Program-made: the position numbers and the translations under genes
Assembly: GCA_029210645.1 (NCBI GenBank)
Contig: JARGFT010000006.1
Coordinates: forward strand, 25,061 to 89,060
Origin: Anaerosomatales bacterium
GTDB lineage: Bacteria; Actinomycetota; Coriobacteriia; Anaerosomatales; SLCP01
Length of the DNA stretch: 64,000 nt
Direction of reading: 5' to 3'
The notes under the pieces: model-generated
Told to the model about the DNA's origin: nothing
Seen by the model: only the letters and a program-made list of their open reading frames with translations
Databases searched by the model: none
Shown: positions 25,668-29,369 of the stretch, piece by piece
Numbering within the stretch: the first letter of the stretch is position 1
How the letters are laid out: every line of letters starts with the position of its first letter

Positions 25668-26744
25668 CTACTCCTCCTTGTCGACGTCGAACCGGACGCG
25701 GATGCCGTCCCTCGTGACGCTGATCTTGGGCTCACCCTTGAGGTGAAGGTAGTACCGCTCGGCGAGATCGTCGAAGGCCCGGGCCATGTCCTGCTTGAAC
25801 CGCGCGAGGTCGGTGTGATGGATCTTCAGGCTCCTGCGGTCCCGGTAGATGTCCGGCGCGGGCGCGGGCACAGCCTCCTCCTCCACCTGAGCCTGTGAGA
25901 GGACGGTGTCCAGTGAACTGAGCTCGTTGCCGAGGATCCGATGAGCGGTGCGCTCGGAGAGCGGGAGTCCGAGGGTGGTCGCGATCTCGACGAACTCGGA
26001 GGCGTCGCACGCGGAGGCGGGACGCTGCCACACGGGGAAGCGACCGGGCTCGTCGCAGAAGAGTAGGTCGGACGTATCGAGGGTTTCGCGCGCAACGGTG
26101 CACAGCGTCGCGGCCACCTCAGCGGGTGAGCCGAGGTACACGTCGAGCTCGGGGTGCTCGCATGCAAACTCGAGTACGCGTCTGATGATGTTGTGAGGTC
26201 CGCGGGTGACCCGCAGCACGCCGTTCTCGTCGCTCTCCACGACCGGCCAGGTCGACTGGTCGGCACGCTCGGGCAGCAGCTCGCCCTCTGCGAAGAGCGT
26301 GATCGACGTTCCGCGGTGCGTGTCTGAGGCGGCAACGCGGCAGGTGGAGGTATTGGCCCGGACCGAGTAGAGCGCCATGCCCCGCCCGTGAACGCCCCAG
26401 CGGTCCATCACCATCGTGTCGAGCTTGGAGGTCACGCGTGGCTCGAAGACCGTCTCGTGGTGGGTGGCGGGAATCCCGATGCCGTCGTCGATCATGGTCA
26501 GGAGACGGCGTTCGCCCTCACGGGTCGTCGCGATGAAGATACGCTGAGCGTGGGCGTCACGCGCGTTGCGCAAGAGCTCGACGACGATGTCTTCGACCGA
26601 GCGGATGTCGTGCTTGGCCTGTCGCCTCTCGGCCTCGGACGTGCGCAAGCGGACGTATCCCTCGCCGAGACTCTCCTCGACCTTCAGGTACGTCTCGCCT
26701 GAGACCGCTCCTACGAAGTCCAACAGGTTGTCGTTGTCGCTCAT
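25668..26744 (-). CDS. orphan GHKL (Bergerat-fold, HATPase_c-like) ATPase with HTH-like C-terminal segment; function unknown
   Basis: N box VELLRNARDAHA, G1 box IDDGIGI, G2 box GVHGRGMALYS. No DHp/HisKA or sensor domain. C-terminal EFVEIATTLGLPLSERTAHRIL resembles a helix-turn-helix. The start is ATG 26744 or GTG 26750. Confidence 0.7.
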   Translation of the reverse strand: MSDNDNLLDFVGAVSGETYLKVEESLGEGYVRLRTSEAERRQAKHDIRSVEDIVVELLRNARDAHAQRIFIATTREGERRLLTMIDDGIGIPATHHETVFEPRVTSKLDTMVMDRWGVHGRGMALYSVRANTSTCRVAASDTHRGTSITLFAEGELLPERADQSTWPVVESDENGVLRVTRGPHNIIRRVLEFACEHPELDVYLGSPAEVAATLCTVARETLDTSDLLFCDEPGRFPVWQRPASACDASEFVEIATTLGLPLSERTAHRILGNELSSLDTVLSQAQVEEEAVPAPAPDIYRDRRSLKIHHTDLARFKQDMARAFDDLAERYYLHLKGEPKISVTRDGIRVRFDVDKEE

Positions 26745-26783
26745 GCCCACAGTCTATACCGTCGAGGGATAGGTCTCTGCGCG

Positions 26784-26852: not shown

Positions 26853-28382
26853 CTACTTGGCGTAGTCGACCGCGCGGCTCTCTCTGATCACCATGACCTT
26901 GATCTGCCCCGGATACTCGAGCTCTTCCTCGATCTGCTTTGCGATATCGCGGGCAAGAACAACCGAGTCGGTATCGCTGATCCGGTCCGGCTGGACCATC
27001 ACCCTGATCTCGCGTCCCGCCTGCATCGCGTAGCACTTCTCGACACCGGTGTGCGACTGGGCGACGGCCTCGAGCTTCTCGAGACGCTTGACGTAGCTCT
27101 CGAGTGTCTCGCGGCGTGCGCCGGGACGACCCGCGGAGATGGCGTCCGCCGCCTGCACCAGTACGGCCTCTACGGTCGCGGGCTCGACGTCGCCGTGGTG
27201 CGCCTCGATGCAGTGAAGGACGGTCTTAGGCTCGTTCATGCGGCGAGCGAGGTCCGCGCCGATGACCGCGTGCGGCCCCTCGATCTCGTGGTCGATGGCC
27301 TTACCCAGGTCGTGCAGTAACCCTGCCCGCTTCGCGAGTTTGACGTCGACGCCGAGCTCGGCGGCCATGACGCCCGCGAGGTGCGACACTTCGAGCGAGT
27401 GCTTGAGCACGTTCTGCCCGTACGACGTGCGGTAGCGCAGACGCCCGAGCGTTCGAACGAGCTCAGCGTGCAGGCCGTGCACCTCGGCGTCGAAAGCGGC
27501 CTGCTCGCCGGCTTCGTGGATCTGCTGGGTGACCAAGGTCTCGGCCTTGTTGAACATCTCCTCGATGCGGGCCGGGTGGATGCGCCCGTCCTGGATGAGC
27601 GACTCAAGTGCGATGCGTCCGATCTCGCGGCGGACCGGGTCGAAACTCGAGAGGATGACCGCTTCGGGTGTGTCGTCGATGATGAGGTTGATACCCGTGA
27701 GCTGCTCGAACGCGCGGATGTTGCGGCCCTCGCGGCCGATGATCCGCCCCTTCATGTCGTCGGACGGGATGTGGACCACCGATACGGTCGATTCCGCGGT
27801 GTGATCTGCGGCAACGCGCTGGATGGCGATCCCGACGATATTGCGGGCCTTCTTGTCCGCTTCCTCGCGAGCGTAGGTCTCAGCCTCGCGGATGTAGGCT
27901 GCAGCGTCACGCTTGACGTCGTCCTTGACGCGGTCGAGGAGCAGGTTCTTGGCTTCCTCGGTGGTCAGACCGGCGAGTCTCTCGAGTCGTGCACTCTCCT
28001 CGGCGATGAGGTCTTCGAGGTCCTTCTCTCGCTTCGCAATCTGACCCTGAACGCTGGAGAGCTGGTGCTCGCGCTTGTCGAGCCCCTCCGCGCGGCGATC
28101 GATAGACTCCTCGCGCTGGGCGAGTCTGGTCTCAAGTGCACTGAGCTCCTTGCGGCGCTCCTTGGCCTCGGTCTCGGCCTCCTGCTTGAGGCGGAAGGCC
28201 TGGTCCTTGGCCTCGATGACGGCTTCTTTTCTGAGCGTCTCGGCCTGCTTCTCGGCGTCCTGGACGATTCGCTCCGCTGCCTCGCGTGAGCTTGCCGTCC
28301 GGTTCTGGACGAGGAACCTGTTGAGTGCATAGCCGAGGGCGATGCCGACGATGGCGGCGATGATCGCGTAGAGGAGCTCCAC
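26853..28382 (-). CDS. rny: ribonuclease Y
   Basis: N-terminal TM, coiled-coil, KH domain ([15 protein letters not shown]) and HD domain (HSLEV...LLHDLGKA). GTG 28382 is preceded by GGAGG at 7 nt. The ORF track starts at GTG 28412. Confidence 0.93.
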
Positions 28383-28500
28383 CGTGCGCCCTCCCTTCCC
28401 GTTGCTGGTCACGTCATGTCATAAGCAACCAAGCCGGGTCGGTCCGGGTTCCCGGGTTTCCCCGACGGCGCTATTGGGACAGCTGCCCTCAGGGTTGCCC

Positions 28501-28532
28501 ACAAACACAAAACCGGACGACACGGCGTCCGG
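28501..28532 (-). terminator. intrinsic terminator (7-bp GC stem plus U-rich tail)
   Basis: Minus strand CCGGACG-ccgugu-CGUCCGG followed by UUUUGUGUUUGUGG. Confidence 0.65.
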
Positions 28533-28682
28533 CAGATGTGATGTCACGCTGCTCACGATGCGATATGCCGAGTATGCGCGAACCCGGACGGTGAGTCCGG
28601 AGTCGGTGGTCTGGTGAGTATCGCATGGTGCAAAACCGCCGGCATAGCTACACGCGTATCGCGGCGGAGAATCACATGTGCC
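28501..28682 (-). ncRNA. candidate structured RNA (rny leader/attenuator or stand-alone sRNA); family not recognised
   Basis: Lies between a sigma70-like promoter (28689-28718) and an intrinsic terminator (28501-28532). P1 pairs 28671-28682 with 28531-28542 (11/12), P2 pairs 28636-28641 with 28662-28667, P3 pairs 28558-28565 with 28619-28626, and an apical hairpin spans 28584-28600. The overlapping 100-aa ORF has poor third-position G/C. Confidence 0.5.
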
Positions 28683-28688
28683 ACGCTT

Positions 28689-28718
28689 ATAGTATGTCCC
28701 AGCAGCCGAAAGCGTCAA
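28689..28718 (-). promoter_or_regulatory. putative promoter immediately downstream of recX stop
   Basis: Minus strand TTGACG (28718-28713), 18-nt spacer, TACTAT (28694-28689). Confidence 0.5.
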
Positions 28719-28730
28719 CATCGGCCGAGG

Positions 28731-29369
28731 TCACCTTATGTCCTGCGCGTCCCCTTTGAGACGATCCAGCGCGGCTCGGGCGACTTCGTAGGAGAAGCCG
28801 CGGGAAACCAGGCGCCTCAGCGCTCTGGCCCGGCCCTTTCGGTCGGTGAGGTCGAGAGTCTTCACCGACTCGCACGCTCTCTCGATCTCATTCGACTGAG
28901 GCAGGTGGGCGTCGAGCACCGGACCGGACATGTCGGGGAGAATCCCCTTCTCTGCGAGGCCGGCAGCGATGCGCCTGCGGCCCCACCCCGATGCGCGCTT
29001 GGCTCGTGCGTAATCCTCGGCAAAGCGCGCATCGTCTAGGTACCCGTACTCTGCCAGCTTGGCCAGCACGGATTCGATGACGGGACGGGTATAGCCGTCC
29101 TCGGACAGCCGGTCGGTCAGTTCTGCTGTGGAGCGCTCGCGGTGGCCGAGGATCCGCAGGGCGCGGTTCATCGCAGCCTGCGGCTCGGCGTCCTCGAGAA
29201 GGTTCGCGACCTCTCTCTCTTCGAGGGTGTCGCCGTCCTGAATCGACGCGATGCGCAGCGCATCGATACTGGTGCGGCGGATCTCAAGGCCGTCGATCGA
29301 CAGCGAACGGACCCGGCGGGTACCGCGGGGACTCGTGATCGTGAGCCGACCCGGTGCTTCCTCGGCCAC
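28731..29369 (-). CDS. recX: recombination regulator RecX
   Basis: GTG 29369 lies 7 nt after the recA stop. The C-terminal two thirds are RecX-like three-helix repeats (ALRILGHRERSTAELTDRL...YLDDARFAEDYAR). The ORF track start (29579) is inside recA. Confidence 0.85.
   Translation of the reverse strand: MAEEAPGRLTITSPRGTRRVRSLSIDGLEIRRTSIDALRIASIQDGDTLEEREVANLLEDAEPQAAMNRALRILGHRERSTAELTDRLSEDGYTRPVIESVLAKLAEYGYLDDARFAEDYARAKRASGWGRRRIAAGLAEKGILPDMSGPVLDAHLPQSNEIERACESVKTLDLTDRKGRARALRRLVSRGFSYEVARAALDRLKGDAQDIR

Follow-up and report, generated by a model that had tools for sequence, protein, structure and literature searches.

We found that the spacer between recX and rny contains, on the minus strand, a structured RNA of about 170 nt, located at positions 28682-28512 of the window, i.e., the whole stretch of 64,000 nucleotides of Anaerosomatales bacterium DNA that was analyzed. 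This element is an RNA family previously uncatalogued and of a known kind, either a structured attenuator or an RNase-gene leader. We regard it as probably a cis-acting attenuator leader of rny, the gene encoding RNase Y, and the leader most likely controls the amount of transcription that reaches this gene. The original prediction had put in the spacer a promoter, a closing helix (P1), a hairpin (H1), the helices P2 and P3, a terminator, and a GGAGG in front of rny, and each of these parts was found at its predicted place.

On the minus strand, recX, identified by its Pfam RecX_HTH1-3 domains, ends at 28731 and is followed by the spacer and then by the GTG start codon of rny at 28382; upstream are cinA, a LigT-like gene, and recA. 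The leader stands before rny (26853-28382, minus strand), which encodes an RNase Y of 509 aa with the Pfam RNase_Y_N, KH, and HD domains and has its start codon 6 nt 3' of the Shine-Dalgarno sequence GGGAGGG (28395-28389). Directly 3' of rny, at 25668-26750 of the same strand, we observed a gene for a 360-aa protein with a HATPase_c domain, and then one for a PHP-domain protein. The 360-aa protein is not a phosphoesterase of the YmdB type, whose gene comes after rny in Bacillus.

The spacer carries a sigma-70-type promoter (28689-28718, minus strand), composed of the -35 box TTGACG (28718-28713), an 18-nt spacer, and the -10 box TACTAT (28694-28689). When the minus strand was scanned with the promoter consensus between 28000 and 29200, this was the sole promoter-like site (two overlapping calls, 0.1 expected from shuffles), and the transcription start is predicted at G28682. 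The strict regular expression TTGACn-17/18-TAnnnT-6/7-GGCA matched about 55 related loci with near-invariant spacing, which makes the G of GGCA the very probable first base of the RNA. Between the terminator and rny, the linker (28383-28498, minus strand) was poorly conserved, showed a fold z of -1.56, and lacked promoter-like sites. The consensus scan found no second promoter-like site between the hairpin and rny in the window or in three related loci (L029, L061, and L071), and the strict expression gave zero matches 3' of the element among related loci, in agreement with the earlier suspicion that rny has no separate promoter after the terminator. Within the linker, ACCCGG occurs three times close together (28436-28465, minus strand; GAAACCCGGGAACCCGGACCGACCCGG), and this arrangement is partially retained in L001-L003.

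The first 12 transcribed bases, counted from the predicted start, are the 5' strand of P1 (GGCACAUGUGAU, 28671-28682, minus strand), and 11 of the 12 positions pair with its 3' strand (AUCACAUCUGCC, 28531-28542, minus strand), whose last three bases, GCC (28533-28531), also make up the base of the terminator stem. P1 closes a tight three-way junction with H1 (28636-28667, minus strand; CCGCCG at 28667-28662 with CGGCGG at 28641-28636) and an irregular long arm, P2-P3 (28550-28632, minus strand), and the 3' hairpin comes next; the joining strands of the junction measured about 1, 1, and 5 nt in the MFE folds of relatives. The long arm was also present in those folds and in the constrained fold of the window. 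It consists of P2a (UGC(A)C at 28632-28628 with G(A)GCA at 28554-28550, minus strand), read by eye from homology with UGUAUG/CAUACA of the relatives, of P2b (AUGCGAUA at 28626-28619 with UAUCGCAU at 28565-28558, minus strand), and of P3 (CCGGAC at 28600-28595 with GUCCGG at 28589-28584, minus strand), which is capped by a UCACC loop. An unpaired motif, GCGCAUAC (28572-28579, minus strand), is the window copy of GnGnAUnC and occupies an internal loop 3' of P3. The intrinsic terminator (28499-28533, minus strand) has a stem formed by GCCGGACG (28533-28526) and CGUCCGGU (28519-28512), the loop CCGUGU, and the U-rich tail UUUGUGUUUGU. This stem of 8 pairs, spanning 28533-28512 and then followed by UUUGUGUUUG, was the sole terminator-like site in the scan (0.3 expected from shuffles), and a GC-rich hairpin with an immediate U tract, the hallmark of intrinsic terminators, was found in the window, L061, and L071. 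The single-sequence fold of the window was no better than that of shuffles (MFE z -0.31), and its own MFE interior departs from the consensus structure; therefore, the helices could not be trusted from a single sequence, and comparative data were required.

Scanning genomes with the RNase Y protein gave 80 loci, all from Coriobacteriia or neighboring deep Actinomycetota (e.g., Aquicultor and Geothermocultor), and the closest relative among them was a Coriobacteriia MAG with 98% RNase Y identity. The recX-rny synteny was observed in nearly all 80 loci, with spacers of 200-450 nt. The MAFFT alignment of these spacers revealed conserved blocks corresponding to TTGAC (-35), TAnnAT (-10), and GGCAaAUGUGAU, a GC-rich central hairpin whose sequence differed between lineages, and AUCnCnnnUGCC directly adjoining GGACG...CGUCCGGCU. 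The same architecture appeared in the independent MFE folds of 12 out of 12 diverged relatives, and the discrete unit from promoter to terminator spanned 165-190 nt among relatives. A covariance model, R1, was seeded with these 12 relatives, leaving the window out, and matched the window at 28511-28682 (minus strand) with 53.7 bits and an E-value of 1e-13. A second model, R2, recognized the window and 44 Coriobacteriia loci at E ≤ 4e-5 (46 matches at E ≤ 7e-5, counting the duplicate L018 and the truncated L016; 12 loci were outside the seed). All 45 of 45 were on the rny strand and just upstream of rny, and no second significant copy was found in the 596 kb searched with R2, where only reverse-strand echoes with E > 0.002 were detected. 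In L054, the element precedes rny even though the upstream ORFs are not recX. The ORFs found there upstream of the leader (L054:1500-2720) have no Pfam match, and the recA-recX-rny synteny is broken with the leader still next to rny.

In the alignment of 44 sequences, 88.6% of the cells formed standard pairs, versus 30-41% when the partners were slid by 1-3 columns. Compensatory changes were found in 27 of the 35 pairs, involving 219 cells, and none of 500 shuffles reached the observed measures. All five helices contributed to this signal: P1 was 89.7% paired, with compensatory changes in 6 of 12 pairs, and such changes affected every pair of the H1 basal helix (5/5), P2 (6/6), and P3 (7/7); in the terminator, the inner 5 pairs covary, and the outer 3 are conserved without covariation. 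Alignments based on covariance models are fitted to the structure and biased towards it; since this was the case for the 44-sequence alignment, the count for P1 and the hairpin was repeated on the sequence-only MAFFT alignment. There, the two helices were 83% paired (30-44% when slid) with compensatory changes in 11 of 17 pairs, and P1 alone was 79% paired with such changes in 7 of 12 pairs. RNAalifold independently recovered P1, H1, P3, and the hairpin from the model alignment; run on the unprocessed 45-sequence MAFFT alignment, it gave the hairpin alone, as the inner helices were out of register there, a defect that was cured by subgroup alignment and realignment with the covariance model. 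The extension of P2 in one register over all members failed, the length of the middle of the arm being variable. The consensus conformer was ≤1 kcal/mol from the unconstrained MFE in 32 of the 44 members. Moreover, G-U pairs exceeded A-C mismatches (79 versus 35), indicating an RNA on the rny strand and arguing against DNA-level repeats. Covariation among homologous spacers, named as a check in the original prediction, was observed in the conserved helices as compensatory changes; the structured RNA running from promoter to terminator is thus real on the strength of the R1 and R2 matches and the covariation, and not of the single-sequence fold.

Among the unpaired columns, only GnGnAUnC 3' of P3 (G 98%, G 82%, A 93%, U 89%, and C 73%) and the GG after the hairpin were conserved. 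U-rich tails were present in the window's own clade and in low-GC relatives; many high-GC relatives had only 3-5 U per 10 nt after the hairpin, and the strength of the terminator is probably variable between relatives. A pseudoknot between CUCACC and GUGAG, also proposed earlier, was not supported: the complementarity is lost in L003, and the complementarity of the P3 loops to the joining strand scored 2.5, compared with 2.4 for shuffled loops.

The search of Rfam 15 (4227 models) at the gathering thresholds gave 0 matches in the 64-kb window, in line with the original prediction, which had seen no resemblance to a riboswitch consensus, and 0 matches in 19 related loci. At E ≤ 10, only two chance-level eukaryotic matches were obtained in 28300-28800, and at E ≤ 1 nothing overlapped the element in nine diverse relatives. 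The 6S models specifically yielded no match under these cutoffs (E ≤ 10 for the window, E ≤ 1 for the nine relatives), and the identification of the element as 6S, SRP, or another known RNA was rejected for the want of any Rfam signal. Among the papers searched, none connected rny with a structured-RNA motif or with an element between recX and rny. The hairpin pattern TGCCGGRCGN{4,10}CGYCCGGYT had at least 120 matches in metagenomes, and none of the 80 listed was accompanied by rny or recX; the covariance model matched the hairpin alone in these sequences, so they are generic terminators, and the scan carries no information on other contexts. One metagenome contig contained a stretch of 108 nt (L139:3914-4021) where GGCAGC...GCUGCC directly abuts a GGGCG...CGUCCGGCU hairpin, with an R1 score of 21.6 bits. 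Both rny and recX are absent from this contig, and the stretch may reflect chance or a similar design of 5' end and terminator at another gene.

The overlap between P1 and the terminator, predicted from the window as 2 nt, amounted to 2-3 nt and was kept among relatives. Two partners are available to the GCC at 28533-28531, namely the transcript's 5' GGC, with which it pairs in 42-44 of the 44 sequences, and the GGY after the hairpin, with which it pairs in 41 of 45. Against a background of covariation in the inner hairpin pairs and in every other helix, the 5' GGC, the GCC, and the 3' GG stay nearly invariant, which is the pattern expected were both pairings under selection. Since the GCC is common to P1 and the terminator stem, two states compete, and the closing helix and the terminator are mutually exclusive, as in the expression platform of a riboswitch. 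The two states were compared by constrained folding, one with P1 complete and a 5-pair hairpin, and the other with the full 8-pair terminator. The difference had a mean of -1.7 kcal/mol (sd 1.9) over the 44 members and was -3.5 kcal/mol in the window, i.e., the P1 state was slightly favored over the full terminator in these folds.

The promoter was also present in more distant loci, from termite-gut bacteria and Eggerthellales (L058-L061), Slackia and Eggerthellaceae (L063-L070), and the Aquicultor group (L071-L080). In most of these distant forms, the 5' strand begins 6-7 nt after the -10 box; a complementary strand ending in GCC is followed by a GCC-initiated hairpin with a U tract, and the interiors differ from the consensus, with sizes of 85-150 nt. 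Shuffle tests of P1 in the distant relatives gave p values from 0.00 to 0.6, individually significant in about half of them, and given this modest significance the distant forms are a plausible, unproven extension of the family. The version in host-associated Eggerthellales and Slackia (L058-L061, L063-L067, and L070) is shorter, 85-120 nt; it keeps the paired 5' end, the GCC overlap, and the U-tract terminator, its internal hairpins are different, and neither R1 nor R2 detects it. In Aquicultor and Geothermocultor, the U tract is clear and the hairpin ends 43-54 nt before the rny start, so that a separate promoter would scarcely fit between the hairpin and the Shine-Dalgarno sequence; a by-eye reading of L071 and L080 places the end of the U tract a short way 5' of that sequence. 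These positions imply that rny must come from read-through, and the termination-controlled leader that had been suggested for the window was strengthened by relatives with the terminator this close to rny. In Atopobiaceae and Olsenella relatives (L078:2793-3001 and L079:2749-3001), the three-way-junction element was absent, and we noted by eye a promoter-like site, a different short leader, and an early hairpin with a U tract, e.g., GUCUU...AAGAC-UUUUUU. A terminator in the rny leader may thus be a theme wider than the three-way-junction family. Judging from these sequences, the conserved theme is a paired 5' end plus a terminator before rny, rather than a pocket.

We propose that transcription from the conserved promoter would begin at G28682, making the spacer the 5' leader of the rny mRNA, and that the first 12 bases would pair with the 12 bases immediately 5' of the terminator hairpin to form P1. 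In the read-through state, the 5' GGC would hold the GCC, so that P1 would be complete and the terminator would be limited to 5 pairs and detached from its U tract. In the termination state, the GCC would be held by the 3' GGU/GGC, the terminator would have its full 8 pairs, and the RNA would measure about 170-180 nt. P1 would therefore behave as the antiterminator, and the leader would set, and probably regulate, the number of transcripts reaching rny. We expect termination to be conditional, and the input may be a bound protein or else ribonuclease activity (RNase Y, RNase J, or both) directed at the leader or its 5' end. A ribonuclease input would give homeostatic control of RNase Y; such RNase feedback specifically is a tentative suggestion, drawn by analogy with the autoregulation of B. 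subtilis RNase Y and with other RNase-gene leaders. The paired 5' end would also protect the read-through mRNA from 5'-end-dependent decay. An improbable, more specific version is that the leader senses the transcript's own 5' end, with read-through requiring the first three bases, GGC, to be intact and paired to the terminator base; if RNase J, RNase Y, or a pyrophosphohydrolase attacked this end while the RNA was still nascent, the terminator could form and rny would be switched off. Some observations speak against attenuation: the overlap comprises only 3 nt, P1 is able to fold ahead of the synthesis of the terminator, which could make constitutive read-through the default state, and the tails with 3-5 U per 10 nt in many high-GC relatives indicate that the hairpin may terminate poorly there.

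The single promoter, the short distance between the hairpin and rny, and the L054 locus without recX favor a cis-acting leader over an independent sRNA gene. Under the latter reading, the product would be a stand-alone stable sRNA acting in trans by means of a protein partner or base pairing, its position would be a matter of synteny, and rny would be reached by incidental read-through. The precedent is E. coli 6S RNA, a stable RNA co-transcribed with the downstream gene ygfA, and given this case the missing second promoter is no proof of a regulatory role. The discrete promoter-to-terminator unit of 165-190 nt, the pairing of both ends, as in many stable RNAs, and the conserved unpaired 8-nt motif, a possible binding site or seed, would all suit an sRNA. 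However, there was no match to 6S, SRP, Ms1, or any other Rfam model even at E ≤ 10, the fold has a tight three-way junction and no rod with a central bubble, the interior is swapped in distant relatives while P1 and the terminator persist, in some lineages 43-54 nt separate the terminator from the rny start, and the 596 kb searched contained no second copy. We thus consider the independent sRNA unlikely, and an attenuator leader may still yield a terminated product that is stable and has its own function.

The original prediction had also called the element riboswitch-like, and only the termination-controlled part of that description was supported. A metabolite or ion bound in the three-way junction would stabilize P1 and block termination, giving an ON switch, and the layout is indeed aptamer-like, with P1 closing the junction and an expression platform whose terminator overlaps P1. 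Nevertheless, the junctions are not conserved, and besides the GG after the hairpin GnGnAUnC is the one conserved unpaired motif, so that across distant lineages no set of conserved junction or loop nucleotides was found that could outline a ligand pocket. Eggerthellales, Slackia, and Aquicultor keep P1 and the terminator with different interiors (85-150 nt), the sole gene type associated is rny, neither a metabolic nor a transport gene, and no Rfam riboswitch matched. Ligand sensing is disfavored by the one short unpaired motif and the swapped interior, and a theme without a conserved pocket counts against a metabolite riboswitch, which appears unlikely from the lack of interior conservation in distant relatives; we give this reading little credence.

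We assign a similarly low probability to a constitutive leader, in which the paired 5' end and compact fold would only stabilize the rny mRNA against 5'-end-dependent RNases, with no regulated switch, and the hairpin would mainly end recA-recX transcripts or be a mere part of the fold. The inclusion of the 5' terminal bases in P1 from +1 in most lineages, the weak U tracts in many high-GC relatives, and the slight preference for P1 over the full terminator are in line with it. Conversely, the near-invariance of the 5' GGC, the GCC, and the 3' GG, as opposed to covarying helices, argues that the competition itself is under selection; in the window's clade and among low-GC lineages the hairpin runs into a clear U tract, and the Atopobiaceae, with a different leader, also have an early terminator before rny in the by-eye reading. 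Finally, that the spacer holds no RNA element and instead represents a 100-aa ORF, DNA-level operator repeats, or a chance fold is very improbable and largely refuted: an ATG-started ORF (28721-28419) does span the spacer and the single-sequence fold is no better than shuffles, but the ORF, rejected as a candidate, is missing in L002 and L003 (spacers 77-82% identical) and has no Pfam match, the covarying helices show an excess of G-U on one strand only, and the model built without the window detected it at E 1e-13.

As a probable attenuator leader, the element can be compared with known systems. Autoregulatory leaders of RNase genes include the E. coli rne 5' UTR (rne5 in Rfam), the rnc leader, and the pnp and Actino-pnp leaders. 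The B. subtilis RNase Y controls its own mRNA through a 164-nt 5' UTR plus the start of the ORF, and that leader is AU-rich and cut at many sites, the word "terminator" being absent from the paper (PMC10303841). The leader described here would share with RNase-gene leaders a long 5' UTR before a global RNA-decay enzyme and the structured 5' end that is common among them; it has no sequence or structure similarity to the rne5, rnc, pnp, Actino-pnp, or B. subtilis rny leaders, given the lack of Rfam matches. Unlike the B. subtilis rny leader, the one described here consists of a GC-rich three-way junction next to an intrinsic terminator, and thus control would act on transcription elongation, besides or instead of decay. 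As in terminating riboswitches and protein-dependent attenuators, the 3' strand of the closing helix overlaps the 5' strand of the terminator and there are two near-isoenergetic conformers. In contrast to them, the overlap in the rny leader is only 3 nt, and it is the transcript's extreme 5' end that supplies the competing strand; in contrast to the riboswitches, it has no conserved ligand-binding core, and its interior differs between lineages.

In the attenuation of B. subtilis pyrG, whose leader is short, the start of the transcript pairs with the 5' strand of the terminator, provided that CTP-sensitive reiterative transcription has supplied additional G residues. The rny leader is similar in that the 5' terminal G-rich bases of the transcript would be the antiterminator, pairing with the base of the terminator stem; it differs in that the pairing is templated and part of a 12-bp helix closing a domain of about 140 nt, and we saw no evidence of reiterative transcription. 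The likeness to 6S RNA lies in the size of about 180 nt, in the paired 5' and 3' ends, and in the possible co-transcription with a downstream gene, whereas the tight three-way junction differs from a rod with a large central bubble.

In many Gram-positive bacteria, it is RNase Y that initiates decay for most mRNAs, and the amount of this enzyme must be kept within narrow limits. To our knowledge, self-control of RNase Y is so far known only in B. subtilis, where it operates via a poorly structured UTR. The family is well defined and could be deposited in Rfam, and its range covers Coriobacteriia and related deep Actinomycetota, gut genera such as Slackia and Eggerthellaceae having a shorter version. 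An attenuator whose antiterminator is the transcript's own 5' end, as proposed here, is of unusual design. If the leader were indeed a sensor of its own 5' end, it would provide a co-transcriptional feedback by which RNA-decay activity acts on the production of the very enzyme that initiates decay. With its covariation support and its built-in terminator, the leader offers a concrete, mutable element for addressing how Coriobacteriia and related deep Actinomycetota set their RNase Y levels.
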